DNA of 64,000 bases. It comes from Thermodesulfobacteriota bacterium. Lineage in GTDB: Bacteria; Desulfobacterota_D; UBA1144; Nemesobacterales; JAJCZQ01. The stretch is taken from assembly GCA_965215275.1 (NCBI GenBank), contig OZ244044.1:1696001-1760000 (forward strand). The letters run 5' to 3'. Shown in pieces: positions 28,035 to 54,466 of this stretch. A program made the position numbers and the translations under genes. Under the pieces are notes generated by a model, which did no database searches, was not told the origin of the DNA, and was given only the letters and a program-made list of their open reading frames with translations. The stretch's first letter is position 1, and every line of letters begins with the position of its first letter.

Positions 28035-29337
28035 GGGAACTATATACTTAAGTATCCAGTGGATACTAAAAGTTCTCTTTGACGAGTCATAGACCAGTTC
28101 CTGTCCCCAACCCCTCTGCAGTCTCCCCGTCCAATCACCCCTTTCCCTGAGGCTATAATTTGTTTTATTCCAGTTTCCAACTGGTTAAATGCAGCATTTA
28201 AGTCAGCATTAACTTCATAACCGCAAGATATACACTTAAATCTGGATTGCGATATTCTGTTGTCAGGAGATCTGTGTCCGCATTCAGAACAGGTTTGACT
28301 GGTATATGGAGCTGGAACTTCTTCAGTAGCATTACATTTATAATCCAGCATCCTTTTCATATCAAACCAGCCAGTAGCACGAATGTTCCTGTTCATCTTG
28401 CGAAAGTTCTTCCATTTCTTTCTGGCTGTCATCCCTTGTGTATTAAGTCTCTCAAGTATAGGAACATCATAAAGATCGGAGATCTTTCTTGTAACCTGAT
28501 GTCTCCAGTCCTTCTGTCTGTTTGCCAGCTTCCTGTGAAGTTTCTGCAACCTTTCCTTAGTAATTCTCCACCTGTTACTTCCCTCTTCCTGACGTGCAAG
28601 TTTCTTTTGGTATCTGCGTATCTTTGCTTCTGTAAGTTCATCATCAGATAACTTAAAAACCTGTCCGTCAGACAGCGTAACCTGTCTTGAATTCCTGTCC
28701 ATTGCTACAACTCTTACTTCTTTCTTTTCCTCTTTAGTTTCATCTATCTCATAGTTAAGGTACGCATACCACTTACCGCATTCCTTCTTGATCCTGCCAG
28801 AAAGGAACTTTCCATCAGGATAAGGATTCTTACCTGCCAACCTGAACCATCCAACCTGAACCATCCAACCTTTAAAATACGGACCCAGTTATTGTCTGAC
28901 AGTTTAGCTGACTGATAATTTACCGGAAACGAAGGAGTAGTTTTTAATTTACTCTTGAATTTAGGTTGTCCCGATTTTCCATTCCTGTATCTCTTACAGG
29001 CATTTGTAAGGTCCAGTAAATAATGCTGAAGTATGTAAGCAGATGCTTCTTTCAGAAAGTAGTTCTTTTCTTCTTTCTTAAACTCTCTTAAAAAATTCCC
29101 TAAACTCTCATGACTATAACCATCATTAAAATCGTTATCCCTTAAAATCCCTGTAAAGTGATTCCATACAAACCTGCAACAGCCAGCAGTAGAGGAAAGT
29201 TTATGAAACTTCTCCCTGTTGTTTGATCTCAACCTCTGCCTTACCGTTCTTATTGTCTTACCTTCTTTCATATTTGTAATTTTATCTTATTCCCTTGCTT
29301 TTTTTAAGTAGTTTGGATACTTAAGTATATAGTTCCC
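28035..29337 (-). mobile_element. Non-autonomous tnpB-carrying element with 24-bp terminal inverted repeats and an 8-bp target-site duplication
   Basis: gggaactatatacttaagtatcca at 28035-28058 and its exact reverse complement at 29314-29337; ttctatat at 28027-28034 and 29338-29345. Confidence 0.92.
28040..29271 (-). pseudogene. tnpB: tnpB split into two ORFs by a 14-bp tandem duplication
   Basis: N-half (CRFVWN, PKFKSK) and C-half (AMDRN, ILERL, TSQTCSECG, NADLNAA); ccaacctgaaccat x2 at 28837-28864. Confidence 0.9.
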
Positions 29338-32032: not shown

Positions 32033-32062
32033 TTGACATTCGTTCATAATACGAAGTAAAAT
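32033..32062 (+). promoter_or_regulatory. Sigma70-like promoter upstream of S8 paralog 1
   Basis: TTGACA-18 nt-TAAAAT; conserved in the second copy at 48478-48507. Confidence 0.55.
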
Positions 32063-32175
32063 ATCAGTGTTATGAAAAATTTCATGAAAAGTTCAAACAT
32101 AAAAACACGTAGTTCCATTACCCCCCCCCGTGTATACCTGACCTTTCAGCCTGGTATAAGTGTTTTTTAAGAACA

Positions 32176-35100
32176 ATGTTTAAGATAATCCCCCCCCCCA
32201 TCTAAGTTAATCCTTTCTTTATTCTTATTTTTTCTGTGCATCATTACTATAGCTGCAAAAGGGCAGAGCAGCTTAGAAGAAACATTATCTGAATGCAGAG
32301 ATATCAGTGCAGACACGGAAGATCCGTTATACGGATGTCAGTGGCATCTGAAGAACACGGGGCAGCTTATTTATTCAGGAAAGAGAATAACATCAGGAGA
32401 AGATATAAACGTAGAGGGAGTGTGGAACGAAGACGTATACGGTACCGGAATTAACATAGCAATAGTAAGTGACGGTATCGACCTTTCACATGAGGACCTT
32501 TCTGCTAAGGTCCGTTCCGGACCGAACTATGATCTTTCTGAAAGAAATAATTCTGAAGAGAACAGTTCAGAAAAAGATAATTCAGAAAGAGATGATCTTT
32601 CATACGGTTCATCCTTTAGTGGAACACGAGCGGCAGGTGTAATAGCAGCAACTGGATATAACGGACTGGGAGTAAGAGGAACAGCACCTGGTGCGAGTAT
32701 ATACAGTTACGGGTTAACTGGTGATCTCAGGGAAGCGGACGCGGTGGTCCGTAATAAGGAAATAACGGCAGTATCGGTTAACGGCCGGGGATCTGAGGAC
32801 GGAGCTTTTTTTCAGGAGGCTTCATCTTCCTGGGAAGAAGGATTGGAACTTGGAATAAGTAAAGGGTTTTATGGTAAAGGAGTGTTTTACGTCCGGGGAG
32901 CAGGGGACGGGCATGAGAGCGGAGATCAGGCTAATTTTAATGAATATTCCAGCTATTACGGAGTAACGGCCGTTTGTTCAACTGACGGTTTTGGAAAAAA
33001 GAGTATTTTTTCAGAAGAGGGAGTAAATCTATGGGTATGTGCACCTGGTTCTGATATCGTGACCACGGATAACGGTGGTGGCTACACCGTAACTTCCGGA
33101 ACGTTCCTGTCAGCTTCACAGGTTGCAGGAGTGGCAGCACTGCTGAGAGAGATAAACGGGCAGCTGAGCTGGAGGGATATAAAGCTTATACTTGCGGGTT
33201 CAGCACGGCAGAACGATTTTTTTGACATGAGCTGGGAGACCGGAGCTGTTAAATACGGTTCTGACGTGGAAAGATATAAATATAGTCCCAGGTATGGTTT
33301 TGGCGTGGTAGACGCGGAAGCAGCCGCAGAACTTGCCAGAAACTGGAAAGGCGTTGGAGAGATGAGGACCGTTACAGCTTCTTCAGATAATGAACTGACG
33401 ATCCCTGATGGAGAAGAAAATGGAGATGGAGAAGCGGACGGGGTACTTACCTCCGGACTTGTGATACCGGACCTGGAGGAAATATTTACGGAATTCGTTG
33501 AGGTAGAACTTGTTTTTTCTCATGACCGCTTACAGGACCTCAATATACAGATAACCTCTCCTTCCGGGACAGTATCGGAACTTGTAAGGGAGTTTTCAGG
33601 GGAGGAAGAAGGCGCTGAGATCAGTTACCTGAGAAGAACACATCGTTTCGGGTCGGCTAAACACCTCGGAGAAGACCCTTCCGGAGAATGGACCCTTAAA
33701 ATATCCGATACTGCTTCCGGAGATGGAGAAGCAGAAAATTCAGAAAATACCGGGACCTTACACTCATGGAGCATCAGGGTCTACGGGCATGTTTTTTTAT
33801 CAGACCGTGGCAAGGAGATAACTACTAAAATAATAACCTTGCCACTTATTAGTGACAAGGTCTACGAACAAGGTAGACTAGTAAGTGAAGTGATGCCTGA
33901 AGCAACGGGAGGGACCGCTCCATATAATTATAGATTTGCTTTTACTTACCCTCTACCTAATGGATTGGAATTTGATCGTGACACCAGAGTGTTAAGTGGG
34001 GTACCAACTACTGTGGGTGTGACCAGTGTTGTATATGTGGCAACAGATTCAAGTCCCCAGGGTTTTTCCCGCACCCGTCAATTCCATATAACGATAACTG
34101 CTAACCCCGTGCCAACCTTCGGCAGTGAGACGGTAGAGGATCAGACGTGGGTTAATGGCAGCGCAGTAACGTTAACTCTGCCTCAGGCAACTGGAGGGAA
34201 TGGAACTTTAACTTACAGTATAGAACGAACTGGTAGCGGTGAAGAAGGTTTACCTGCTGGATTGGACTTTACCGCAAGCACCAGAGAGATAAGTGGAACG
34301 CTAAACGTTCGTGGACAATTACCTGTAACTGCTACTTATACCTACAAGGTAACTGATGATGACGGAGACACGGATACTCGCACCTTCTCTATTACTATAG
34401 AAGCTGATACAGAGCCGAGCTTTGGAGGTCAGTCAATTCCTGATCAGATATATATTCAAGGGACAACGGCAAACCTTCCAGTAACACTGCCTGCTGCAAC
34501 GGGAGGGAATGGGACTTTAACTTACAGTTTAGTTCCTAAACTGCCGGATGGACTGATATTTACCCCTGCTACCAGAGAGATAACAGGAACACCGACCACT
34601 GCAACGTCTGAGACTGATTACACGTATACGGTTGCTGATCTAGATGGAGATACGGATGAAATAGAGTTCAATATCACGGTAAGAACAGAACCGAACACAA
34701 TGCCGACCTTCGGCAGTGAGAGTATAGATAATAAGGTGTACATTAACGGCATTACAGCAGTAATGGAAACACTTCCTGAAGCAACGTCAGGGAATGCACC
34801 ATTAACTTACAGTTTAACTCCTGCCTTACCTGCCGGATTGGATTTTACCCCTGCTACACAAGTTATAAGCGGAACACCGACTACTGCAACGTCTGAGACT
34901 GATTACACGTATACAGTAACGGACGCAGATAATGATACAGATAAACTGGAGTTCAGCATAACAGTGGAAGAAGACAGCGAACCGGACTTCAGCGTGACGA
35001 CGATAGAAGATCAGGTGTACATGGGGAGATCAATAAGGTTGCCGGTAGCAACGGGAGGGAATGCACCGTTAGTATACAGTATAACGCCTCCCTTACCTCC

Positions 35101-35458
35101 TGGGTTGAGATTGGACAGAAACACCGGGGTAATAAGCGGGACGCCCGCGAGTGCGTCGTCTGAGAGGACCTACACGTACACGGTAACGGACAGGAATGGA
35201 GACATGAAAGAGTTGACCTTCAGGTTCAGTGCAGCGGCTCCGCCACCGACAGGTAGTGATCCAGGCGGAGGTGGAGGAGGATGTGCCGTATCAGATCAGA
35301 GCAGTGTTGCTTATGATATTCTCGGAGTAATGACATGTCTGATGCTTATACCCGTGTCGGTATTGATCAGAAGGAAAAGAAGATCTCAGATTAAGGACAC
35401 ATGTCACGATGGAGTAAGTGCTTGTGGGTGGCCTTTTGATATACTCTGCCGCCTTTAA
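32176..35458 (+). CDS. Kexin-like S8 pseudo-peptidase + P domain + putative Ig repeats + GGGGC/TM anchor, paralog 1 (frameshifted at poly-C)
   Basis: Signal peptide and DPLYGCQWHLKNTGQ in frame upstream of the ORF-track start 32420; LSWRD, YGFG, GEWTLKISD; repeated LPxGL/SGTP/YTVTD; GGGGGGC-TM-RRKRR. Confidence 0.85.
32190..32199 (+). repeat. Poly-C (C10) tract after the start codon; a second C9 tract lies at 32121-32129
   Basis: ATG TTT AAG ATA ATC CCC CCC CCC ATC TAA; C9 would restore the frame. Confidence 0.85.
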
Positions 35459-35810
35459 CTAATTTTGTGAAGTCTTGATGTAGAGCCTTATCGTCTGAAA
35501 CCAGTATGTTTACTCCGGTTACTTGTGCCAATGCGATAATATGTTCGTCGTTGGATTTAATAGTTTCCCTTAACCTGTCAGTTTTATCTTGAACTTTGTT
35601 ACTATTCTTTTCTATTTTGAGTTTTCCTGCTCGACTCCATTCTAGTTGTTGTTTTGTATTTATCCTTCCCCATTCTTGTTTGAATTTATCCGTATTGGCA
35701 ATAACAATTTTGCTGTTTTTTTTATCAAGCCATTTTCTGACGGGTGCCATATCCTCGTTATTAGGATTTGTTAATTTACCTAAACAATTGATGTCAAGAA
35801 TAATGCACAT
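35391..35810 (-). CDS. PIN-domain-like protein
   Basis: IILDIN at N-terminus, NDEHIIALA, LVSDD acidic pattern. Confidence 0.7.
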   Translation of the reverse strand: MCIILDINCLGKLTNPNNEDMAPVRKWLDKKNSKIVIANTDKFKQEWGRINTKQQLEWSRAGKLKIEKNSNKVQDKTDRLRETIKSNDEHIIALAQVTGVNILVSDDKALHQDFTKLVKGGRVYQKATHKHLLHRDMCP

Positions 35811-35813
35811 AGC

Positions 35814-37154
35814 TCAATCTTCGCTATTCCACAGTAACCTGTCCGTTTCTTTTAAGAAAAATTCTCTGTAAGATCCGGGAACTTCTGTTAAGTTACCCTT
35901 TTTGTCAAATTTGATGTTATGCACTTTAACATGTGCTCCTTTTGGTTCTAAATAGATTAGCGAGACGTTTTCGGGAGGGATATTGCCTCTTTGTATTTCA
36001 ATACGGGCACGGTCAATTATATAGTCGCTGTGTGTTTCTATTATAAAAGAATGTTTTTTTGTATTGACCGTATTAACAAATAAGGACATGAGTTCTGCTT
36101 GCCCTCTGGGATGTAAATGCACTTCTGGTTGTTGTAGAAGAAAGAATAAAGGATATTTACTGCTAAATATTCTGACAAGAATTGGCAGTATCTGACTTAC
36201 ACCATAGCCAACGTCCATAATGTTTGATCTTGGTCCCCTTACTTTGACTTGTATTTGAAAAGGGTCACTCATTGATTTACCATGCTTTTTTACTTCTATC
36301 TTATCAAATAACCCCGAATCTTCACCGAATGCGACTAGTTGCTGTTGTAGTCTTTGCCATTCAATATTTTTAGAAGACTTCATCCGCATTAATAACATTG
36401 GAATATCACTGCCTTCAGGATCTTCAAGTTCTTTTATCGGATCATAGGTGCGCTTAGGACGAGAGCGAACAGGAGCAAAACTAAATGGTCTTGAGAAATT
36501 TAACTTTCTAATGGTACTATCTTTTTCTGAAAGGAAACTATGTAGTGCTTTTCCCTCTGAGGATGATTTTATTTTTAACTGCCTGTCAAGGGTAAAAGAA
36601 ATATAATTGAGTACAAACATGGGGTTTATCGAAAAACCCATATTGCAACGGATATGGAATATCTTTTTGTTAATATTCGTTTTTTTAGTATCTACTACAA
36701 AAAATTCTTTTCTATATGCCTGTTGTGACCTGTCTTGAGTAAGGTGGATCTCACCATCATGAAATTTCAGGTTCATACATTCAAGTATTGGTTCGGCACT
36801 CTTTTCTTTTTCAACAATACTGATTGTGAAATCAACTTTTTCGTTGCTCTCAACCTCAAAACGGAAACCTAACTTGAATTTTTCACCTACGGGCCTTGTT
36901 CTTGTTACAATGTCCTTGAAACTCCCCATGGAATATGGTTCAACATTAAAATCCAAATTTAGGTTCCTACTTAAGGCAATGGGATCTGTTAAGGCAATGG
37001 AATCTGCCAAAACCTGAAAACATCCCATCGCAGTGCTTTTTCCCGTGCTGTTTTCTCCTACAAGGAAAGTGATAGGTCTGATATTAAATTCCTGCTGTCC
37101 GGCAAAACAACGGACATCTTCCATTACAAACTTTGTTATGTCTGGTTTTTTCAC
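35814..37154 (-). CDS. AAA/ABC-type ATPase (AbiEii/DUF3696-like)
   Basis: GENSTGKS, DVGYGVSQILP, QPEVHLHP, ETHS. Confidence 0.88.
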   Translation of the reverse strand: MKKPDITKFVMEDVRCFAGQQEFNIRPITFLVGENSTGKSTAMGCFQVLADSIALTDPIALSRNLNLDFNVEPYSMGSFKDIVTRTRPVGEKFKLGFRFEVESNEKVDFTISIVEKEKSAEPILECMNLKFHDGEIHLTQDRSQQAYRKEFFVVDTKKTNINKKIFHIRCNMGFSINPMFVLNYISFTLDRQLKIKSSSEGKALHSFLSEKDSTIRKLNFSRPFSFAPVRSRPKRTYDPIKELEDPEGSDIPMLLMRMKSSKNIEWQRLQQQLVAFGEDSGLFDKIEVKKHGKSMSDPFQIQVKVRGPRSNIMDVGYGVSQILPILVRIFSSKYPLFFLLQQPEVHLHPRGQAELMSLFVNTVNTKKHSFIIETHSDYIIDRARIEIQRGNIPPENVSLIYLEPKGAHVKVHNIKFDKKGNLTEVPGSYREFFLKETDRLLWNSED

Positions 37155-37185
37155 TTAACTACCACCACACCATATCATTACCAAA

Positions 37186-37450
37186 GGGAATTATATACTT
37201 TTTACTTGTTTTTGTTTACTAAATTATATAATCCCCAATATTTATTCCTATTTATATTAAAATTTCCGTAGTGAGAGCAATATCTATTATCACCATTTTA
37301 CCCTACTTCTGCTCCTCAAAAGCTTTCTTGCTGATTCCTCATCTGGAAACATTTTAAAGAATTTATAAAATCCGATTTTATAGTGTTGTGTTCTTTTATT
37401 CTCGTCAAATGATCCATTTGAAATCTTGGATAGTAAAGTATATAATTCCC
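37186..37450. mobile_element. MITE-like remnant bounded by IS1595-type inverted repeats
   Basis: gggaattatatacttt at 37186 and aaagtatataattccc ending 37450; extra internal end tatataatcccc ending 37236; no TSD seen. Confidence 0.6.
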
Positions 37451-37562
37451 TTTGTTTATGTATATAACTCCCATAAATAACTGGTAAATTGCCTGCATAA
37501 AATAAGGTATAAAATGGATAAAAACCAAACTATACTTATGGTGATGGGGAGCAATAAGACAG

Positions 37563-38792
37563 TTGCCTGATTGGGACTTTGGTGGAGCGGAAAAAGAGCG
37601 TCTTATACACAGGATACACAGCTACCCTGCTAAATTCCCCAGCTTTATAACCACAGAAGCTCTGAAATATGCAAAGAAAAAAGGTATAAACGTAAAGACT
37701 GTTGCAGATGTATTCTGTGGTTGCGGTACTACCGCAGTTGAAGCGAAAAGGAATGGCATAAGATTTTGGGGGTGCGATATAAATCCAGTTGCCGTAATGA
37801 TCTCTCAAGTCAAAACCAGGCGATATAAAGAAGATATGTTGAAAAAATACTTCTTTAATATTGTGGAGAGATTTGATTCAATAAAAATAAGTGAGCAAGA
37901 CACTGAAAATATAAACGACAGAATAAAATATTGGTTTAATGCAAAAACTATAAAAGACCTGTTAAAGTTAAAGAAGGCAATAGAAGAGGAGGTATCTAAT
38001 CGCAGTAAGTATAAAAATTTCTTTCTTTGTGCTTTTTCCAATATTCTGAAACCCACATCCAATTGGTTGACAAAGTCAATAAAACCACAGATAGACCCTG
38101 ATAAGTTACCAAGTAATGTAATAGAAGAGTTTGAGAAGCAGTTCAAGTTCATGGAAAAAGCCAGCGAAGAAAACATTTTTTCTAAGCAGGACACTCCTCA
38201 AATCCAAATAATACGGAGAAACTTCCTCTCAATAAATACCCGTAAATATAAAGCTGACCTGATCATTACAAGTCCACCATACGTTACATCTTATGATTAC
38301 GCGGATATACATCAATTATCAATTTTATGGCTTGGCTTTTATTCCAAATACCAAGACTTGAGAAAAAACATGGTGGGTAATATTTATGGTGTAGCAAAGC
38401 CCTCAAATGAAAAATTACAGTCTTTACCTTCTGTCGGAGAGCAGATATACAAAAAACTTCGTGAAAAACATAAGGCTAAAGCAAATTCCACGGCAAGATA
38501 TTTCATAGATATTAGGGAGGCAACTGAAAATTGCTATAAAATCTTAAACAAGAATGGAATGACAGTATTTGTGATAGGTAACACGAATTATAAGGGCGTG
38601 GAAGTGGACAATGCACAGTTTTTGGGAGACTGTATGGAAAGTGCCGGATTTAAGAAGATTGAAAAAATTCCTCGTAAAATATCATCTAAGACATTAACGC
38701 CTTACAGAGATGCCAAAGGACGTTTTACCAGAGATAAAAACCACAGAAAAGTATACAGTGAAGAATTTATTTTTATAGGCAGGAGGATGTGA
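37563..38792 (+). CDS. Amino-DNA methyltransferase, probably N4-cytosine (start uncertain)
   Basis: HSYPAKF, DVFCGCGT motif I, TSPPY motif IV. Confidence 0.9.
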   Translation: MPDWDFGGAEKERLIHRIHSYPAKFPSFITTEALKYAKKKGINVKTVADVFCGCGTTAVEAKRNGIRFWGCDINPVAVMISQVKTRRYKEDMLKKYFFNIVERFDSIKISEQDTENINDRIKYWFNAKTIKDLLKLKKAIEEEVSNRSKYKNFFLCAFSNILKPTSNWLTKSIKPQIDPDKLPSNVIEEFEKQFKFMEKASEENIFSKQDTPQIQIIRRNFLSINTRKYKADLIITSPPYVTSYDYADIHQLSILWLGFYSKYQDLRKNMVGNIYGVAKPSNEKLQSLPSVGEQIYKKLREKHKAKANSTARYFIDIREATENCYKILNKNGMTVFVIGNTNYKGVEVDNAQFLGDCMESAGFKKIEKIPRKISSKTLTPYRDAKGRFTRDKNHRKVYSEEFIFIGRRM

Positions 38793-41014
38793 TGGACAAA
38801 ATATCCTTTCGTCCCTACGCACGGCTCCTGACAATGTTGGGAGATCAGCTCATCAAAAATGAACGGATCGCCCTCGTGGAAATTATCAAAAACTCCTACG
38901 ATGCAGATGCCGACTGCGTTAAGGTGAGTTTTGAAAATTTCAATGATGATATGTCGACAAATGCAAACTCAAAAATCATCGTTGAAGACAACGGCAGAGG
39001 TATGTCCCAAGAAGAAATATGCAATGCTTGGATGAATCCAGCCACCCCGCAAAAATACAACAGAAAAAAAGAAGGCAAGAGAACAACACCTGAGAAGAAG
39101 CGTGTCATACAAGGCGAAAAAGGGATCGGACGCTTTGCAGTTCTTAAACTGGGAAAGAAGATAACAGTAGCAACCAAGACTAATGGTTCAAACTTTGAAT
39201 CAGTGCTTGACTATGATTTTACAAGATTTGATGACGAATTCACTGAAGAATCAGGGACGGCAAAAGATATTTTTCTAGATGAAATTAAAATAAATTACTC
39301 AGAATCCGACCCTCCCAAGTTAGTAAAAGAACCTCATGGAACTCTGATAGAAATATGTGGACTGAAAGGTTCTTGGAGCGACAAGAGCATTAAAAAACTT
39401 TGTGGAGATATATACAACTTGACAGACCCTATTTCAAAAATTACAGGGAGGAAAAATGACAATTTTGACATACACATCACATGCAACGGTGAGATTAAGC
39501 CAATAGAATATGAAAATGCAGAAGATATTAAAGCACTGATAGAGGACAAGTCTGTACTAAAAATACAAGGAGAATTTAATTCTGACAAGAATGCTTTTAT
39601 CTTTACCGATGATGAAAATGAAAGTCATGAAACGGAAATACAACTGAGCGATACAAAATTAACAGGTTTGTGGATATATAGAGATAGGTATAAAGAAGAA
39701 CAAAACATGGAAGAGGACAAAAAGTATAATTGTGGTAGTTTCAAATTTCACTTTTACATTTTTGACTTTTCACTAGGCATATCCGGGAAATATGAACTTA
39801 ACCGGGAGCAGAGAAAGATGCTTAAAGACCATAGAATTTATCTTTACAGGGATGGCGTGCGAGTTTATCCCTACGGTGACCCTAATGATGATTGGTTAAA
39901 CATAGACATAGCTAGAGGAACGGGAAGAGCGGGAGATTTTTTCAGCAACGATCAGATGATTGGCTGGATAGATATTACCCAGGAATATAACCCAAATTTA
40001 AGAGACAAGACCAATCGAGAAGGTCTTATTGAGAAAGAAAATGCCGTAGAACACTTCATTTTTCTTATATCAGTTTTTTTATCTTACATAAGGCAATATC
40101 CATATTCACGCTACCAGCAAAAAAAGAAAGATAAAAGTGCGGTTGAATTGGCACAGAAGCGATTGATTTTCAAGAATCTGTCTGATTTGAAAAAAAGTCT
40201 TTCCGAACAAGGGCTTAGGTCGGAAGTTGACAAAGTCGGAAAGATAGAAAAAAAGTACAAGAAAGAAAGGGATTACTTGGTTCAACGTGCTGAAACCGTG
40301 GAAGATTTAGCCGGCGTCGGTCTTTCAGTGGAAATGACATCACACGACATAATGCTCATGATGGGTAGGGCTCAAGACACTTCAAAAGTGATAGCAAAAC
40401 TTGCAAGAGACCATTGTAATGAGCAAATTCAAGAGAAAGCCAATATGCTGGTGGGAATTTTGTCTCAGGTAAGCGATGGAATGCAAGACATTCAAGGTCT
40501 ATTCAAATCGGCAAAAAGGCGCAGGAAAAACCTTAAAATTGAACCTATACTGGACAAGATTTTTGACCTCTACAAGGGGTTGCTCGAAAAGAGGAAAATT
40601 CATTACGAGAAAGAAGTTTTATCTGGTTCTCCTCTGATAGCCGACACGACGGATGCTGTTATAATGCAAGTCTTAATAAATCTTTTTGACAACTCTTCAT
40701 ACTGGCTTGATACCGAGACTGAGACCAAGAGCGAAAAACGAAGAAAAATAAAAGTATTGCTAAACGGTAATCAAGGAGAGCTAATCTTTGCCGACAATGG
40801 TCCGGGCATAGACAAAGAGGATATTCCTTATATCTTTGAAGCTTTTTACTCTGGAAAAGGTCAAAAAGGGAGAGGTCTGGGATTGTATATAGCTAGACAA
40901 TTGCTTGAGAGGCATGATTACTCTATTTCTATAGTTGAGCGAGAAAAGAACAAACTGCTGTCTGGAGCTAACTTTATCGTTAGTTTCTTCAAGGAGGGTG
41001 ACAATGGACATTAA
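38789..41014 (+). CDS. GHKL/MORC-like ATPase fused to a histidine kinase module
   Basis: N-terminal EIIKNSYDAD, DNGRGM, GEKGIGRF; C-terminal SHD H-box, NLFDNS, DNGPG, GRGLGL. Confidence 0.88.
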   Translation: MMDKISFRPYARLLTMLGDQLIKNERIALVEIIKNSYDADADCVKVSFENFNDDMSTNANSKIIVEDNGRGMSQEEICNAWMNPATPQKYNRKKEGKRTTPEKKRVIQGEKGIGRFAVLKLGKKITVATKTNGSNFESVLDYDFTRFDDEFTEESGTAKDIFLDEIKINYSESDPPKLVKEPHGTLIEICGLKGSWSDKSIKKLCGDIYNLTDPISKITGRKNDNFDIHITCNGEIKPIEYENAEDIKALIEDKSVLKIQGEFNSDKNAFIFTDDENESHETEIQLSDTKLTGLWIYRDRYKEEQNMEEDKKYNCGSFKFHFYIFDFSLGISGKYELNREQRKMLKDHRIYLYRDGVRVYPYGDPNDDWLNIDIARGTGRAGDFFSNDQMIGWIDITQEYNPNLRDKTNREGLIEKENAVEHFIFLISVFLSYIRQYPYSRYQQKKKDKSAVELAQKRLIFKNLSDLKKSLSEQGLRSEVDKVGKIEKKYKKERDYLVQRAETVEDLAGVGLSVEMTSHDIMLMMGRAQDTSKVIAKLARDHCNEQIQEKANMLVGILSQVSDGMQDIQGLFKSAKRRRKNLKIEPILDKIFDLYKGLLEKRKIHYEKEVLSGSPLIADTTDAVIMQVLINLFDNSSYWLDTETETKSEKRRKIKVLLNGNQGELIFADNGPGIDKEDIPYIFEAFYSGKGQKGRGLGLYIARQLLERHDYSISIVEREKNKLLSGANFIVSFFKEGDNGH

Positions 41015-42173
41015 AGAACTTCTATCAGGGATTGCTGTTGTGATTGACGATGCCCTGAAAAAGGAAAAAGATGAAGGAAATGGTGATCGCATCTTTGATA
41101 TAATAGATAAAATAAAAGAACAGGATATACCTCTGTACATGGAAAGCGAAATTCCATCTGATAAAACTTGTGATAGTTTGTTAAGGTCTGCAAGTTTTGT
41201 GCTGTTGGATTGGAAACTGTGGGAAGCAGTAGGAGATACATTAGAGAAAAAGAAAATTGAAGAAAATATAGAGTTTCTTGATAGAGCAAAGAGACATTTT
41301 ACTCCTGTCTTTATATTAACAAACGAGAATATTGACGACATAGAACAGCATCTTGATTGTTGTAAATTTTATGATAAAAAAGACTCAAGAAAGAATTTTA
41401 TTTTTATTGAAGACAAGCATAGGATGAATATAGACAATGTTTTTAATCCTATTAAAGAATGGATGAGTACAAATGCTTCAGTCTATACATTGAAAGCTTG
41501 GGAGCAAGCATTCTATAAAGCAAAGGAGGATTTTTTTTGCTCTATGTATGAAAAAAGTCCTAGTTGGCCTATAGTATTTTGGTCATCTTACAAAGAGGAT
41601 GGTGTGGAGCCAAGTTCACTCATTGCCAATCTTATAAATAACAATGTATTAGCACGTATGAATAACAGTATTTTTAAGGAAAGTGTTTTAAATAGAGAAC
41701 AAGGCGAAACAGATAGAGAACAAAACAACATAGACCCCCAAGATGTTAAGTCTGTTTTAGCAGGATCAATTTTTATACCAGAAGAGAACCTATCCAAAGA
41801 TGAAATAAGGGCTGGGGATATATTTAAAAAGAAAAGAAACAAATATTTAATTAACATTCGTGCAGACTGCGATTGTATACCTAGAGATGAAACTTCCTTA
41901 GATGATATTGCTCTATTATGCATTGAAGGCAGTTCTGTCAATCCTAAAAAAGTCTATGATTTAGAAAGGGTCTGGCAATCTATTGTGTTCGGGATAGATA
42001 AAAAAACTGTCCAGTTTGATTTTAGGAAATTTATAAGTATAAAATATGGAAATGTGTGTTGTAAACGTGTTGGACGTCTAAATCATCCCTATATAACAAG
42101 AGTCCAGCAACGCTTTGCGTTTTACCTACAACGTCAAGGACTTCCCAGAATACCAGAAGAAGTGATAAATTAA
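41004..42173 (+). CDS. Atypical response-receiver-domain protein
   Basis: aggagg RBS before MDIKEL; VVIDD, LLDW, FILT; C-terminal GD...RADCD...QRQGLP. Confidence 0.75.
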   Translation: MDIKELLSGIAVVIDDALKKEKDEGNGDRIFDIIDKIKEQDIPLYMESEIPSDKTCDSLLRSASFVLLDWKLWEAVGDTLEKKKIEENIEFLDRAKRHFTPVFILTNENIDDIEQHLDCCKFYDKKDSRKNFIFIEDKHRMNIDNVFNPIKEWMSTNASVYTLKAWEQAFYKAKEDFFCSMYEKSPSWPIVFWSSYKEDGVEPSSLIANLINNNVLARMNNSIFKESVLNREQGETDREQNNIDPQDVKSVLAGSIFIPEENLSKDEIRAGDIFKKKRNKYLINIRADCDCIPRDETSLDDIALLCIEGSSVNPKKVYDLERVWQSIVFGIDKKTVQFDFRKFISIKYGNVCCKRVGRLNHPYITRVQQRFAFYLQRQGLPRIPEEVIN

Positions 42174-47187: not shown

Positions 47188-47362
47188 TTACATTATTGGA
47201 GCGAAGATTTAATAGGGAATTATGTGTATATAAAGTAAGAATGATCTGTATATCCTGATAGATCTTTGTCAATTAAAAACAGAGAAAGAAGTTAATACCT
47301 GATATTTACAGTAGAACAGAAGTAAAACATGGGGGGGGGGGATTATCTACTTAAAAGCAATT

Positions 47363-48403
47363 ATGTTTAAAAAGTTAAACATAAAAAATTTTAAAGTTTT
47401 AAAAGATTTTACCTGTGATGATTTAAAACCTGTTAATACCTTTTCTGGTAAGAATAATTGTGGAAAGTCAACTTTATTAGAGGGGATTTTCTTATTATCA
47501 GCTTGTTCAAATGCTGCTGTATTAGTTGATAGAATATTTCCGTTTAGGCAAATGACTATCAACCAATCAAGAGACCTGTCTTTCTTCTTTTCTCAGTTAG
47601 ACTTCAGTGAAAAAATTAGCTTTAACGGTACTTTTGAAACTGATAAGATTTATGTGGGCTACTCTCCAGTATTAGAAGATAATAAAAAGATCAATGGTTT
47701 AGATATTGAATACAAATACAACAATCAATCATCTGGCAAGAGCCAGATCAGATATGCTCCTCAAAAAACACAACTATCCGTTCCAGGACTAACTATAGAG
47801 CAACAATCCCCTTTTGTTGTAAATATAGAAGATAATAAATCTTCCAAGATTATTTCGGCAAAAATTCTCAATTCTGGATCATTTACTGAAAGTCTTAAGG
47901 AAGTTATAGAAGTTATAAGAATGGGAAATAAGGGCACATTCCTGAAAGTGTTAAATGATGTGTTTGATGAAGAAATAATAGATGTTTTCCAAGCAGAAAA
48001 TGTGATTGAAGTTTTTCTTAAAGGGATTAAAGAGTCAATTCCTTTGAATTTGTTAGGAGGTGGAATGAATAGAGTAGTTCCTTTGTTGTCATCATCAATC
48101 TCACCGGATTACGAAGTATTACTGGTTGACGAAATAGAAAATGGACTTCATCACTCTGTTATGAAACCCATTTTAGAAGTTCTGTTTCAAGAAATCATCC
48201 GCAGAAAAAAACAAATATTCATAACTACACATAGTGAAGATATATTGAAAGCCATTGCGGAAGTTATACAGGAGAATGAAGATTTTTCAGATAATTATAG
48301 ACATCATTCATTAGTTATAAAAAATGATACTGTTCGTTGTTTTTCTTATAATTCAGAACAATTCTTGACGGCTAGAGAAACTAATTTTGACGTGAGAAAC
48401 TGA
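47363..48403 (+). CDS. AAA/AbiEii-like ATPase
   Basis: GKNNCGKS, LGGG, VDEIENGLH, TTHS. Confidence 0.88.
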   Translation: MFKKLNIKNFKVLKDFTCDDLKPVNTFSGKNNCGKSTLLEGIFLLSACSNAAVLVDRIFPFRQMTINQSRDLSFFFSQLDFSEKISFNGTFETDKIYVGYSPVLEDNKKINGLDIEYKYNNQSSGKSQIRYAPQKTQLSVPGLTIEQQSPFVVNIEDNKSSKIISAKILNSGSFTESLKEVIEVIRMGNKGTFLKVLNDVFDEEIIDVFQAENVIEVFLKGIKESIPLNLLGGGMNRVVPLLSSSISPDYEVLLVDEIENGLHHSVMKPILEVLFQEIIRRKKQIFITTHSEDILKAIAEVIQENEDFSDNYRHHSLVIKNDTVRCFSYNSEQFLTARETNFDVRN

Positions 48404-48614
48404 TGCTAACTTTTTTGGAAATTATTCCTACATCCTGAATATCATTATCATTGCAAGAAAGAGAAAGAAACTCATACTTGACATTTATTCATAATACGAA
48501 GTAAAATATTAATGTTATGAAAAGTTCAAATGTAAAAACAAAAACGCATAGTTCCATTACCCCCCCCCGTGTATACCTGAACTTTCAGCCTGGTATAAGT
48601 ATTTTGTAAGAACA

Positions 48615-51600
48615 ATGTTTAAGATAATCCCCCCCCCCATCTAAGTCATTACTAACTTTAGTCTTTATTCTTCTGTTTATACTGGTAATAGCTGCAAAAG
48701 GGCAGAGCAGCCTGGAAGAAACATTATCTGAATGCAGAGGCATCAGTGCAGACACGGAAGATCCGTTATACGGATGTCAGTGGCATCTGAAGAACACGGG
48801 GCAGTTAAGTTTTTCCGGAAATAGAATAACTGCAGGAGAAGATATAAACATAGAGGGGGTGTGGAACGAAGACGTATACGGTACCGGAATTAACGTAGCA
48901 ATAGTAAGTGACGGTATCGACCTTTCACATGAGGACCTTTCTGCAAACGTCCGTTCCGGACCGAACTATGATCTTTCTGACAGTTCATCCTTTAGTGGGA
49001 CAAGAGCGGCAGGAGTAACAGCAGCAACTGGATATAACGGACTGGGAGTAAGAGGAACAGCACCTGGTGCGAGTATATACAGTTACAGGTTATCCGGTGA
49101 TATCAGTGAAGCGGACGCGGTGGTCCGTAATAAGGAAATAACAGCAGTATCGGTTAACGGCCGGGGATCTGAGGACGGAGCTTTTTTTCAGGAGGCTTCA
49201 TCTTCCTGGGAAGAAGGAGTGGAACTTGGTATAAAGCAAGGGTTTTACGGTAAAGGGGTGTTTTACGTCCGGGGAGTAGGGGACGGGCATGAAAGAGGAG
49301 ATCAGGCTAATTTTAATGAATATTCCAGCTATTACGGAGTAACAGCCGTCTGTTCAACGGACGGCTTTGGAAAGAAGAGTATTTTTTCAGAAGAGGGAGT
49401 AAATCTGTGGGTATGTGCACCTGGTTCTGATATTGTAACTACTGATAACAAAAACGATTACGTTGTAACTTCCGGAACATTTCTATCAGCTTCACAGGTT
49501 GGAGGAGTGGCAGCACTGCTGAGAGAGATAAACGGGAATCTGAGCTGGAGGGATATAAAGCTTATACTTGCGGGTTCAGCACGGCAGAACGATTTTTTTG
49601 ATATGAGCTGGGAGACTGGAGCTGTTAAATACGGTTCTGATACGGAAAGATATAATTCTAATCCTAAGTATGGTTTTGGCGTGGTAGACGCAGAAGCAGC
49701 TGCAGAACTTGCAAAAAGCTGGAAAGGCGTTGGAGAGATGAGGACCATTACAGCTTCTTCAGATAATGAACTGACAATTCCTGATGGAGAAGGAGAAGCA
49801 GACGGGGTCCTTGTTTCCAGACTTATGATCCCGGACCTGGAGGAAATATTTACGGAATTCGTTGAGGTAGAACTTGTTTTCTCTCATGACCGCTTACAGG
49901 ACCTTGATATAAAAATAACCTCTCCTTCCGGGACAGTTTCGGAACTTGTGCGGGAGGTTGCCGGGGAGTCTGTAAGGGGATCTTCGGATGAAGAAAAAAA
50001 CTGCGTCAGTTACCAGAGAAGAACACATCGTTTCGGGTCGGCTAAACACCTCGGAGAAGACCCTTCCGGAGAATGGGTCCTTAAGATCTCCGATACTGCT
50101 TCCGGAGATGAAGAAGATGAAAAAAACACTTTTACCTTACACTCCTGGAGCATTAAGGTATACGGGCATTTTTATCAGGGACCTGGCAGTGAGATAAGTG
50201 CTAAACATCATGATTTCAGTTTTGGTGGTGCGACAATTCAAGATCAGGAGTATCAAATAGGAGTTCAGATAACACCATTAGAACTGCCTAGAGGAACTGG
50301 TGGGGGTGGTGGAAGTAGATACAGGTTAGAACCTAATCTGCCTTCTGGATTGAGGCGTATCATCGACACAATAAGTGGCACACCAAATACTCTGATGTCT
50401 GAGACTACTTATACATGGACTGGTACAGGTCTTAATGGAGATAGTGAAAGTATAACGTTCACCATTACGGTGGTAACAGAACTTAACTCAGAACCAACCT
50501 TCTCAGGAGCAACTGTCCCAGAGCAGATATGGACGGAAGGGGTAAGGATACCAACGTTACGTTTTCCTAATGCAACTGGAGGTAACGGAACTTTAACATA
50601 CTTTTTAAGTCCTGCGCAGCCAGTTGGTATCAGCAGACAGGACAACAGGTTATTCGGAACACCTACGGAACCTCAAAGAAGATCTCTTTATACATGGACA
50701 GTCAGAGACAAAGATAATGATGAAGATATTATTGAGTTCTATATTACTGTAAGAGAGAACGTCCCTACCTTCGGAGGTCAGACCATACCTCAGCAGAATT
50801 ATATAGTAGGCAGAACAATACAAAGATTAGTATTTCCTCGTGCAACGGGAGGGAATGGAACTTTAAATTACAGTTTAACTAATAGTATAGGTGATCCAAT
50901 TAAAATTAATGGATTGGATTATAACGAAAACACCAGAACGTTAAGTGGAACGCTCAACGTTTCTCCAAGTGGATTACCTATAACTCAAACTTATACTTAC
51001 AAGGTAACTGACTCTGACTCAGATGATGACGGTGATTCTGACAGTATTACTTTCTCTATTACTATAACGGCGGTCCTGGCCTTTACCCGGCCTGTATTTA
51101 GTCTTTATACGTTTGTAGCGGGTAATTTCCACTCCACAACTCTGCCAGAGGCAACGGGAGGGAAAACTCCCTTAACTTACAGTTTAACACCTGCATTATT
51201 TGATGGATTGGAATTTAATCCTGCTACCAGAGTGTTAAGCGGAACACCAACTGATGCAACAAAGCCTAGGAAGACTTATACATATACCGTTACTGACACA
51301 GATGGAATTACGAAAGAGCAGACGTTTGATGCTCAGGTAAGAGCAAATATTACTAACATAACGGTAGTAGATAAGGTATATAAGGTCGGTACAGCAGTAA
51401 CGGACACACTGCCTATTGCAGCGGGAGATGGTGGTGGAATATTAACTTACAGTTTAACTCCTTCTTTACCTTCTGGACTGAGTTTTAACAATAACACCCG
51501 AGAGATAACTGGAACGCCAGATACTGCAACTTCCAGAATAACTTACACTTATAGAGTAACTGACACAGTGGGAGATACTGCTCCTTTAACCTTCAATATC

Positions 51601-52383
51601 ACGGTAGTAAGAGCAGAACCAGACACGGAACCAACCTTCGGGAGTGAAACTATAGATAATAAGGTGTATATAAACGGAGAAGCAGTAAATGAAACACTGC
51701 CTGAAGCAATGGGAGGGAATGCTCCATTAACTTACAGTTTAACTAATAGTGTAGGTAATCCAATTAACATTCGTGGATTAAGTTTTAACAGAAACACCAG
51801 AACGTTAAGTGGAACATCCACCGTCAGTGTACATCTACTTCCTACAACTAAGACATATACATATAAAGTAACAGACAATGATGGAGATACAGCAGAGATA
51901 ACGTTCAGGATAACAATAGAAGAAGACAGCGAACCGGACTTCAGCGGTACAACAATACCTGATCGGGTGTACACGGGGAGAACAATAACGCTGCCGGAGG
52001 CAACGGGAGGAAATTTACCAGTTACTTACAGTATAACACCTGATCTGCCAGCTGGATTGAGATTTAACGAAGTAACGCGGGAAATAAGTGGGACACCCAG
52101 GAGTGCATCATCTGCTGCTTCTTACACGTATACGGCAACGGACAGGAATGGAAATACGGATGAGGTGAGTTTCATGCTCAGTGTAGAGGTTCCTTCTACT
52201 CCACCAACACCACCACGAGGACCAAGAACATCAGGTACTGATTCAGGCGGAGGTGGAGGAGGATGTGCTGTATCAGAGCAGAGCAGCGTTGCTTCTGATA
52301 TTCTCGGAGTAATGGCATGTCTGATGCTTATACCTGTATCTATAGTGATCAGAAGGAAGGGAAGGTCTCAGATAAAGATGTAG
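48615..52383 (+). CDS. Kexin-like S8 pseudo-peptidase + P domain + putative Ig repeats + GGGGC/TM anchor, paralog 2 (frameshifted at poly-C 48629-48638)
   Basis: Same architecture and near-identical 5' region as paralog 1; ORF-track start 48859. Confidence 0.85.
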
Positions 52384-52648: not shown

Positions 52649-54466
52649 TTATGAAGTCAGCAGCGTCTTGATTTCTGCCGGCAGTGTAACATTAAATCTT
52701 TTCTCGAATTCAGTTACGCTTTTGTACTCATCGTGAAAAAAGTAGGCAATATTAGACCATTTTCTACTAATGGTCAGGTCTGCTTTAGCACTTTCCCATT
52801 TACTCATGCATAGTTTCATAATTGCCCGTTCATAGTAGTTGCGATCTTCATCTGGATCAATTTCTATTGCCTTGTCAAATTCCTTAATTGCTTCCTTGTA
52901 TTGTCCAAGGCTGCCTTTGGCACGTCCTCTGTTATAACAAATGCAGGGATAGATACGTTCTGTAAATCCCGGATCAAGTTTTATTGCTTTATTAAGGTCC
53001 TCAACTGCTTCCTCGTGTTGCCCAAGACTGCTTTTGGCAAGTCCTCTGTTGTAATAAACATGGTCATAGAGTGTATCGCCCAATTGGGGATTGATCTCTA
53101 TTGCTTTGTCATAGTCCTTGATCGCTTCCTTGTATTGTTCTTTTGCCTTAGCAATATCTTGTTCTAAATCTCTCAGTTGTTCTCCTAGTCCGAATCTGCT
53201 ATCTCCTCTGTTATAGTAGAATTTTGCATCTTGCGGGTCTATCTTTATTGCTTCGTTAAAATCCTTAATGGCTTCCTCGTATTTTTCAGATTGTAACTTG
53301 GCATTTCCTCTGCTGTAGTAAATTTCCGCATCTTGCGGACCTGTCTCTATCACTTTGTCAAAGTCCTTGATCGCTTCTTCGTAGTATCCAATCTCGTATT
53401 TGATAATTCCACTGCTGTAGCAGACTTCTGCATCTTGCGGGTCTATCCCTGCCGCTTTATCAAGATCTTCAATAGCTTCTTCTCCTGTCTTTTCTATAGT
53501 TTCGTCTAATTTTTCGTCCCGGCTCCCAATACGTGGTTCATACATAACTTTGGTAAGTTCTTTAGCAAACAAAGCTCTGGAAAGTCCTCTATTATAGTAG
53601 GCTACTCCGTCTCGCGGGTTCATATCTATTGCTTTGCCAAAGTCCTTGACCGCTTCCTCGTATTGACCAAGCAGGATCCTGATATACCCTCTGTTACAAA
53701 AAGATTCTGCGTCTTGAGGATCGATCTTTATTAATTCGTCAAAGTCCTCGATCACCTCTCCGTGTAACTCAAGCAGTTTTTTGGCAACCTTTCTGCCAGC
53801 GTGGGTAAACAGATGCTTCGGATAGACCTCTATAATTTTGTCAAAATCCTTGATCGCTTCTTTGAGTTTTCCAAGATTTCCTTTGGCATGTCCTCTTTCA
53901 TAATAACAGTGAAAATACGCAAATTGTGGGTCGATCTTCATAACTTTATCAAAGTCCTCGACCGCTTCCTTGTATTGTCCAAGTTCGTTTTTGGCAAACC
54001 CTCTGTTATAGTAAATATCTGCATCTTGCAGACCTGTCTCTACTGCTTTGTCAAAGTCCTCGATCGCTTCTCTGTATCGTTTAATATAGGTTTTGGTAAG
54101 CCCTCTTTTATAATAAACCTCTGTATCTTGCGGACCTATCTCTATTGCGTTACCAAAGTCCCTAATTGCTTCTTTGTATTGCCAAAGTCGGGTTTTAGCA
54201 AATCCTCTGTCAGTGTAGGATTTTGCATCCTGTGGGTTCATCTCTATTGCTTTATTAAAATATTCAATTGCTTTGTCGTACTGCTCAAGTTTGACCGCGG
54301 CAAGCCCTCTGCCAGCATATGCTCTTGCAAATTGAGAATCAAGATGGATCGCCTCATCTAGATCATCAATAGCTTTTATGAACTCTCCTTTGTTCAAAAA
54401 CGCGTTTCCGCGTTCAAAGTATCCTTTTGCATCTTTTGGTTCTGGCAATGTATTTGATTTGTCCAC
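52649..54466 (-). CDS. Tetratricopeptide repeat protein
   Basis: Many 34-aa repeats YYNRG.AK..L.QY.EAI.DF.KAIEI.P. Confidence 0.95.
   Translation of the reverse strand: MDKSNTLPEPKDAKGYFERGNAFLNKGEFIKAIDDLDEAIHLDSQFARAYAGRGLAAVKLEQYDKAIEYFNKAIEMNPQDAKSYTDRGFAKTRLWQYKEAIRDFGNAIEIGPQDTEVYYKRGLTKTYIKRYREAIEDFDKAVETGLQDADIYYNRGFAKNELGQYKEAVEDFDKVMKIDPQFAYFHCYYERGHAKGNLGKLKEAIKDFDKIIEVYPKHLFTHAGRKVAKKLLELHGEVIEDFDELIKIDPQDAESFCNRGYIRILLGQYEEAVKDFGKAIDMNPRDGVAYYNRGLSRALFAKELTKVMYEPRIGSRDEKLDETIEKTGEEAIEDLDKAAGIDPQDAEVCYSSGIIKYEIGYYEEAIKDFDKVIETGPQDAEIYYSRGNAKLQSEKYEEAIKDFNEAIKIDPQDAKFYYNRGDSRFGLGEQLRDLEQDIAKAKEQYKEAIKDYDKAIEINPQLGDTLYDHVYYNRGLAKSSLGQHEEAVEDLNKAIKLDPGFTERIYPCICYNRGRAKGSLGQYKEAIKEFDKAIEIDPDEDRNYYERAIMKLCMSKWESAKADLTISRKWSNIAYFFHDEYKSVTEFEKRFNVTLPAEIKTLLTS

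Follow-up and report, generated by a model that had tools for sequence, protein, structure and literature searches.

Kexin-like domains without a catalytic triad in a Thermodesulfobacteriota genome: a candidate poly-C-switched family of surface pseudoproteases

The stretch of DNA analysed here (the window) comprises 64,000 nucleotides of contig OZ244044.1 from a Thermodesulfobacteriota bacterium (assembly GCA_965215275.1, positions 1,696,001 to 1,760,000). It contains two genes, A and B, whose S8 domains resemble kexin and furin and have other residues at the catalytic positions. This raises the question of what the genes encode and why such a domain is kept. A sequence-only reading had described two near-identical, open copies in which every catalytic residue was lost, and had proposed a surface pseudo-protease repurposed as a binding or decoy head on an Ig-repeat stalk.

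The four motifs named in that reading, IVSDGID, SGTRAAG, GxGDG and SGTFLSAS, are all present at the claimed place. In a phmmer alignment with furin (E 2e-33), IVSDG pairs with ILDDG, SGTRAAG with HGTRCAG, GAGDG with ASGNG, and SGTFLSA with TGTSASA, and there is no ambiguity at any of the four catalytic sites. Gene A has Ser codons for Asp (32468) and His (32618), an Asp codon for the oxyanion Asn (32906), and a Phe codon for the nucleophile Ser (33104). Gene B (ORF 48859-52383) has the identical four residues, and the changes D>S, H>S, N>D, and S>F relative to furin are seen in both genes. In place of the Asp-His-Ser triad of an active S8 protease, the window genes have Ser, Ser, and Phe. Active PC2 carries Asp at the oxyanion position, and N>D alone is therefore compatible with activity. 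The claim that every catalytic residue is lost holds for the Asp, His and Ser of the triad, but N>D by itself is no loss of activity. The loss of His and Ser is, as judged from the residues alone, incompatible with activity, and the sequence alignment appears to exclude an intact triad elsewhere, one of the two findings that the earlier reading had named as its refutation.

Both ORFs (32420-35458 and 48859-52383) match PF00082 (S8) and PF01483 (P domain) above the Pfam cut-off, and He_PIG (PF05345) is also matched. Among proteins of solved structure, furin and Kex2 are the closest in sequence. A 94-row alignment gave an AlphaFold2 model with a pLDDT of 87.5 and a pTM of 0.91, against a pLDDT of 43 from 18 rows. 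Foldseek pairs this model with furin 5jxi (E 6e-41, TM 0.80), Kex2 (TM 0.83), and Aeromonas ASP (E 6e-36). HMM alignment and structure prediction, both proposed earlier as checks, agree on a furin/Kex2 fold in which the triad residues are replaced. Genes A and B, with an S8 and then a P domain, are predicted members of the kexin-like S8B fold family. Membership of the CspC/CspA group was rejected, as NCBIfam NF040808 gives 16.8 and 18.8 bits against a cut-off of 675.

All features of genes A and B described here lie on the forward strand. Gene A has a promoter-like site of the sigma-70 type (32033..32062; TTGACA, an 18-bp spacer, and TAAAAT, with 11 of 12 consensus matches), which is common to most tract-bearing paralogs. 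A distal ATG at 32072 opens a 32-codon upstream frame (32072..32170) that passes through a first poly-C run, C9 (32121..32129), has its stop at 32168, and ends 5 bases short of the proximal ATG. As assembled, this proximal ATG yields a 9-residue peptide and then a stop (32176..32205), and the gene is OFF. The second poly-C run, C10 (32190..32199), is one base longer than in the in-frame sister at genome 1008163 and puts the upstream ATG out of frame. The hydrophobic signal-peptide region (32201..32263) is in the S8 frame without an in-frame start. A GTG at 32420 had been taken as the start, but the S8 frame extends 77 codons upstream, through the signal peptide to the C10, and the actual start is about 250 bp upstream. 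The description of the domain as open is accurate for the S8 frame, but this frame is shifted relative to the upstream ATG by the poly-C run.

The S8 domain of gene A, which lacks the triad, occupies 32318..33346 with no propeptide-sized segment ahead of it. An acidic Ser/Asn/Glu repeat loop of variable length (32519..32608) lies just before the former His; it has low pLDDT and is missing in gene B. N-glycosylation of this loop was rejected, as there is no STT3/PglB match and the sequons show no excess (33 versus 37.5 in shuffles). The S8 domain is followed by a proprotein-convertase P domain (33347..33790, PF01483), a stalk of Ig-like He_PIG repeats with 5 Pfam stretches (33791..35263, PF05345), and a sorting tail made of a Gly-rich-Cys motif, a membrane helix, and an Arg/Lys cluster (35264..35383) at the C-terminus. 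The 3′ end of gene A (window 35384-35458) departs from the family consensus, with about 20 extra residues and three Cys after the basic cluster, and this segment overlaps the opposite-strand ORF 35391-35810. The 5′ end of gene B (48478..48638) comprises the promoter-like site, a distal ATG at 48517, C9 at 48560-48568, a proximal ATG at 48615, and C10 at 48629-48638, and gene B is also OFF. Its remainder (48639..52383) comprises the signal peptide, the dead S8 domain with the same substitutions, the P domain, the Ig stalk, and the sorting tail.

The rest of the window has other features. Overlapping transposase and TnpB-like frames on the reverse strand (28040-29271) look, by eye, like an IS605-type element with a frameshift. 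A low-GC stretch (35-37%) between gene A and gene B (35814-42173) contains an AAA ATPase, a DNA methylase, a HATPase/histidine-kinase-like gene, and unknown genes, and is likely a defence island. A tRNA is the only Rfam family in the window. Relatives at 76-79% of a sulfurtransferase encoded in the window carry the labels Thermodesulfobacteriota or Deltaproteobacteria.

The genes are not two copies, as had been stated, but two of 57 dispersed S8+P paralogs found by tblastn in the whole genome, which is a single contig of 1.99 Mb and 99.87% complete. The frames of these paralogs amount to 175,413 bp, or 8.8% of the genome. "Near-identical" was also an overstatement, as the S8+P identity of genes A and B is 82% including gaps or 89%, and about 48% in the best stalk match. 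The Asp-His-Ser triad is kept in seven paralogs; an intact copy lies, for example, at genome 796435. By their residues at Asp-His-Asn-Ser, six are DHNS, one DHDS, one GHDS, ten DRDS, five DRDA, two DRNA, one N-DA, and one SHDA; one is a 5′-deleted fragment, and 29 are fully dead with the pattern of the window genes (S/G, S/T, D, F/V).

A FastTree phylogeny of 94 rows, from which the 5′-deleted g1505534, one partial outside domain, and about two thirds of P0063-P0120 are absent, places all own paralogs included in one clade. A derived clade (support 99, 56 rows) comprises 48 of the 56 own paralogs placed and 8 outside proteins with the same tail, and the intact own paralogs branch outside it. 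Within the derived clade His>Arg comes first, then Ser>Ala, then the fully dead group. Catalytic loss was stepwise within one clade, with His lost first, then Ser, then Asp. His is absent in 47 of the 48 own members, and the remaining one lacks Asp and Ser; its His was most simply regained by conversion, we infer. Two further loci, at genome 627284-628603 and 1649106-1650047, end in the tail without an S8 domain, and these, like a member at 633539, have a promoter, a run, and a signal peptide. Members of the family can therefore lose their head entirely.

Outside homologs with 40-50% identity occur in Dehalococcoidia and Acidimicrobiia genomes, among others. Their domains are intact in 65 of 77 cases, and 8 of the other 12 belong to the same derived clade and have the same tail. 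In a second outside set from 141 further representatives, 131 of 155 domains are intact, 6 are partial, 2 are altered at the oxyanion site only, and 16 lack a triad residue, with a single protein accounting for 5 of these. Dead kexin-like domains thus also arise now and then elsewhere. One protein from elsewhere, P0289, has 3332 residues and five kexin-like domains, all without triad residues, and is an independent pseudoprotease array. A search of the 4 other genomes available from this taxonomic family (80-99% complete) yielded no member of the S8+P family. Of 26 genomes from other families in the order, 9 had matches to S8, all of them weak (E 5e-13 or worse). A metagenome scan found 6 loci, all distant (41-44%), and therefore no DNA of other strains.

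Every one of the 49 derived-clade genes carries one or two 5′ runs of C8-13, in or just before the signal-peptide code, while none of the six DHNS genes has a 5′ run. Runs of other kinds are present in two DHNS genes, where they are internal, in the GHDS gene, where they consist of G, and in the DHDS gene, which carries a C9 ahead of its ATG. The runs in these basal copies are an internal C17 frameshift in g669409, an in-frame C9 in g609312, G11 and G13 in g518305, and a C9 upstream of g430466. The run and the loss of the triad arose once on the tree, and the distribution of 49/49 versus 1/8 is therefore one event and not a correlation. Internal runs at genome 668426 (C17) and 518332 (G13, coding strand) break two basal paralogs; the run at 668426 separates the stalk and tail from an intact protease, which could thereby alternate between a released and an anchored form. 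In a paralog at genome 652455 the sequence that would separate the two runs is gone, as a deletion between C-runs would produce.

Read from an upstream ATG, 11 of the 49 derived-clade genes are in frame and 38, including both window genes, are out of frame, with the status of about four depending on the ATG chosen. The share in frame does not differ from one third (p 0.13). For 45 genes a single frame can be assigned without ambiguity; 24 of them have one C too many, 12 have one too few, and 9 are in frame. The +1 shifting of ribosomes on CCC-C proline codons is known, and these offsets could reflect leaky recoding by such frameshifting or by transcriptional slippage, so that all copies would be made at a constant low level. 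With a fixed recoding signal a single offset would be expected, but all three are found, run lengths span 8 to 13 and are unequal in copies that are otherwise near-identical, and the same run lengths precede unrelated genes. Recoding is thus quite unlikely. Five two-run genes are in frame. One of them is read continuously from the distal ATG, and the other four contain an upstream frame that is 28-34 codons long. These lengths end beside the proximal ATG, as in gene A, which suggests that the first run in two-run genes may be a second gate.

The genome contains 78 C/G runs of length 6, none of 7, 6 of 8, 68 of 9, 32 of 10, and 33 longer ones. The expected numbers are 48 for length 7 and 2 for length 9. 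There are 139 runs of at least 8, and 78 of these are at 5′ ends of the S8+P family. Many of the other 61 are at the 5′ ends of frames that, read by eye, resemble methyltransferases, TPR proteins, and lipoproteins. In relatives, the counts of C7 and C9 are 6/14 (G001), 27/1 (G002), 12/0 (G003), and 76/18 (G005). Campylobacter jejuni is not known to have a working MutS/MutL pathway. In contrast, MutS and MutL are kept in this genome with intact frames, and mismatch-repair loss was ruled out as the source of the runs.

Several long runs lie outside the S8+P family. At window 47331-47341 a G11 directly follows an ATG, behind a promoter-like segment resembling that of the S8+P family and upstream of an AAA_21 (AbiEii-like) ATPase ORF (47363-48403), and is another candidate switch. 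By eye, long C/G runs are present 5′ of DNA-methyltransferase-like and restriction-type frames at genome 828763, 834720, 1001504, 1048690, 1306215, 1814694, and 824372, which suggests phase-variable methylation on top of the surface family. A second paralog family, of TPR proteins, has a C9-11 run at one internal position (genome 19539, 20737, 31545, 1068992, 1899949, 1901573, 1914729, and 1964984); the TPR copy in the window (52649-54466) has no such run.

The lengths of the runs vary between close relatives. Five of five near-identical 5′ paralog pairs differ in run length, although over 498 bp they are just 1-6 substitutions apart and free of further indels; the pairs represent seven genes, as three pairs share genes, and 16 of 21 initial pairs were dropped as alignment artefacts with 1-3 aligned bases. 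Gene A (OFF) and g1008163 (ON) are one substitution and one C apart. A repeat at the 5′ end sets the frame, and its length changes much faster than its flanks; both are properties of contingency genes. The contigs of four sequencing runs from one study, which may be the source specimen and drop rare alleles, show no length variant at four unique tracts.

The genome is in one contig, presumably from long reads, and C-run errors are common in such data. The frameshifts could then be homopolymer errors in ordinary open frames. However, independent contigs reproduce the run length at all four unique tracts spanned, one of them in an ON gene with C8, and the lengths are therefore not assembly errors. 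Length variants of both tracts are present among paralog contigs in several runs; the reads over gene A mix paralogs, and these variants are therefore not assignable to that locus. The housekeeping genes of the window are unbroken. Orthologs from other assemblies with full starts (P0048, P0161, P0160) and internal starts (P0040, P0054, P0058) match this genome, three and, in the comparison of agreeing orthologs, two respectively. Assembly error is extremely improbable and already largely refuted. One ortholog has a full start here and an internal start in two other assemblies (P0122 versus P0033 and P0123, at protein level only), which is weak evidence because an intact run-less paralog is also called from an internal start. 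Phase variation through slipped-strand switching by the poly-C runs is likely on the strength of these patterns.

The dead copies also show constraint. The pooled pairwise dN/dS of the 29 fully dead copies is 0.30 for S8 and 0.24 for the P domain, against 0.36 for the S8 domain of 6 intact copies; because the copies are mosaic, these values mix histories. Mosaics of identical and diverged blocks are found in 15 of 406 pairs and involve 16 of the 29 copies. A dN/dS comparison had been suggested, and among the paralogs of this genome it indicates purifying selection on the dead S8 domain. The frame is unbroken from the S8 start to the tail in 50 of 57 paralogs, and the other seven have further breaks.

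The alternative is that the family consists of decaying pseudogenes, in which a mutational bias to C9-C10 knocked most copies out, while duplication and gene conversion preserve an intact look. The 38 out-of-frame genes, the seven further breaks, the invariant unique tracts, and the extensive mosaicism are in line with decay. Modal run lengths have also been proposed to result from mutational drivers and not selection (PMC3401435). In contrast, dN/dS is 0.28 in the 22 OFF copies, equal to that of the 7 ON copies (0.27), and half of the S8+P positions are invariant across the 29 dead copies. The residues now at the catalytic positions are nearly fixed in this group. Promoter, signal peptide, and tail are retained, and a share in frame close to one third is also against decay, which is unlikely. 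The loss of catalytic residues in a fold under purifying selection defines a pseudoenzyme. The residues, the furin/Kex2-fold model, and the purifying selection all agree with the term pseudo-protease used earlier, and the window genes almost certainly encode pseudoproteases.

The claim of a surface location is backed indirectly by predicted features, namely the signal peptide, the Ig stalk, the Cys membrane tail, a myxosortase-like gene, and a secretin beside a GspE-type ATPase. A tail profile search of the genome gives 63 matches, of which 55 lie in S8 frames and 6 within or next to broken members; the other 2 are in members that lack S8 but keep promoter, run, and signal peptide. All 63 belong to the S8+P family or its pieces. 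Against the Synerg-CTERM model TIGR04564 the tails score 9.8 and 11.6 bits, under the cut-off of 22.5. The genome has one CPBP protease gene (PF02517, genome 680830), directly upstream of the paralog g679940; it best matches MrtP, Mrt_core, and MrtS (E 1e-15 to 1e-19), under every Mrt cut-off. A secretin gene is followed by an ATPase gene read as GspE-type. GlyGly-CTERM/rhombosortase sorting was rejected, as the 99.87% complete genome has no PF01694 rhomboid and 14 of 14 controls were positive. In Myxococcus, tails of the MYXO-CTERM kind are cut by MrtX for surface display, and CTERM sorting can involve dozens of tagged proteins per genome and one CPBP protease (PMC11980579). The MYXO-, Synerg-, and JDVT-CTERM systems are similar in the Cys motif, membrane helix, basic cluster, number of tagged proteins, single CPBP protease, and predicted type II secretion. 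Unlike the curated systems, tail and protease here are under every cut-off and the tags are confined to one family. Surface display of the family is predicted and likely.

The former active site also varies between copies. Cleft-lining positions are twice as variable as the rest (0.58 versus 0.29 bits, circular-shift p 0.003), for a cleft set that was picked from furin pocket numbering and is confounded with surface exposure; the higher variability may reflect weaker constraint on loops at the surface. At four acidic positions of the cleft the residue is fixed, or close to fixed, among the dead copies and not among the intact ones. The repeat loop before the former His differs in length by up to about 21 residues.

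Dead domains could instead regulate or chaperone the few active paralogs, as CspC and CspA do with CspB, with no outside ligand. In C. difficile, subtilase pseudoproteases regulate an active subtilase (PMC7200643). The seven intact-triad paralogs share the tail and would share the surface, and the dead-clade proteins all lack room for a propeptide. However, 49 variable copies against 7 active ones, with variation in the cleft rim and in stalk length (by a rough count of Ig repeats), are a better fit to a diversified outward repertoire, and the low CspC profile scores do not agree with such a role either. Regulation of active paralogs is very unlikely.

A 49-member poly-C-switched clade of surface-anchored pseudoproteases that act as binding or decoy heads is the fairly probable overall reading, and its last step, the binding repertoire, is at best equally probable. 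Replication slippage in the poly-C runs would turn each gene on or off, and a changing minority of the 49 copies would be on display, as binding or decoy heads that do not cut. Where a gene has two runs, the first would serve as a second gate, which either fuses the distal ATG in frame or ends the upstream frame near the proximal ATG. Export would proceed via Sec and the type II secretion system, the single myxosortase-like protease would cleave the Cys tail, and lipid anchoring would follow. The old cleft, with a rim that varies between copies and fixed acidic residues, may bind a host, neighbour, or phage ligand, for which basic peptides or proteins are the best guess. The earlier proposal of a binding or decoy head is retained as the presumed role.

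This family combines properties of several known systems. The S8B proteases kexin and furin, including Aeromonas sobria ASP (PDB 3hjr, 3wqb), have the same S8 plus P domain and predicted fold. Unlike them, the family described here has lost the triad and has an Ig stalk, a Cys tail, 57 paralogs, and poly-C frame control. C. difficile CspC and CspA likewise retain the subtilase fold for a non-catalytic role after triad loss (PMC7200643). They belong to another subfamily, are soluble spore germinant sensors, and form no multigene repertoire, whereas the present family is a predicted membrane-anchored stalked head in 49 copies. Neisseria opa and pilC are also paralogous surface genes with a repeat switch in the leader peptide, a G run in the case of pilC, and opa comprises up to 12 genes (PMC5354566), which have CTCTT repeats and encode integral outer-membrane adhesins with known receptors. 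Unlike opa, there are 49 genes here, with C runs that are often two in series and an enzyme-derived head, and switching is deduced from sequence. The poly-G/C loci of C. jejuni have the same modal run length of 9, no 7s, and few 8s (PMC3401435), with 11-29 tracts per genome; the present genome has 139, over half of them on one family.

No report of a phase-variable pseudo-subtilase family was found in the full-text literature searched, which covers a minority of subscription journals, nor any case of one family filling 9% of a 2-Mb genome. Pseudoenzymes of the subtilase type are known, as are surface families switched by repeats, and no case of the two joined was found in that literature.

Intact, His-lost, Ser-lost, and Asp-lost stages coexist in one genome. 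They are side by side and are therefore a ready series for the study of how an enzyme becomes a binding protein. Automatic annotation would mislabel such genes as active, N-terminally truncated S8 peptidases. A tentative wider reading, a little short of even in our judgement, is that in this uncultured bacterium a horizontally shared kexin-like protease became a variable receptor repertoire of about 50 catalytically dead heads, with a cleft diversified by mutation and gene conversion and with one or two serial poly-C switches ahead of each head, for antigenic variation or adhesin tuning. Host association of the organism is suggested by its relatives. If it is a marine-animal symbiont, the question arises of what selects pathogen-style surface variation without host antibodies, whether phage, innate receptors, or neighbours. 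If the proposal is true, the organism would have a system for antigenic variation or adhesin tuning that is several times the size of the opa family and is built from pseudoenzymes.
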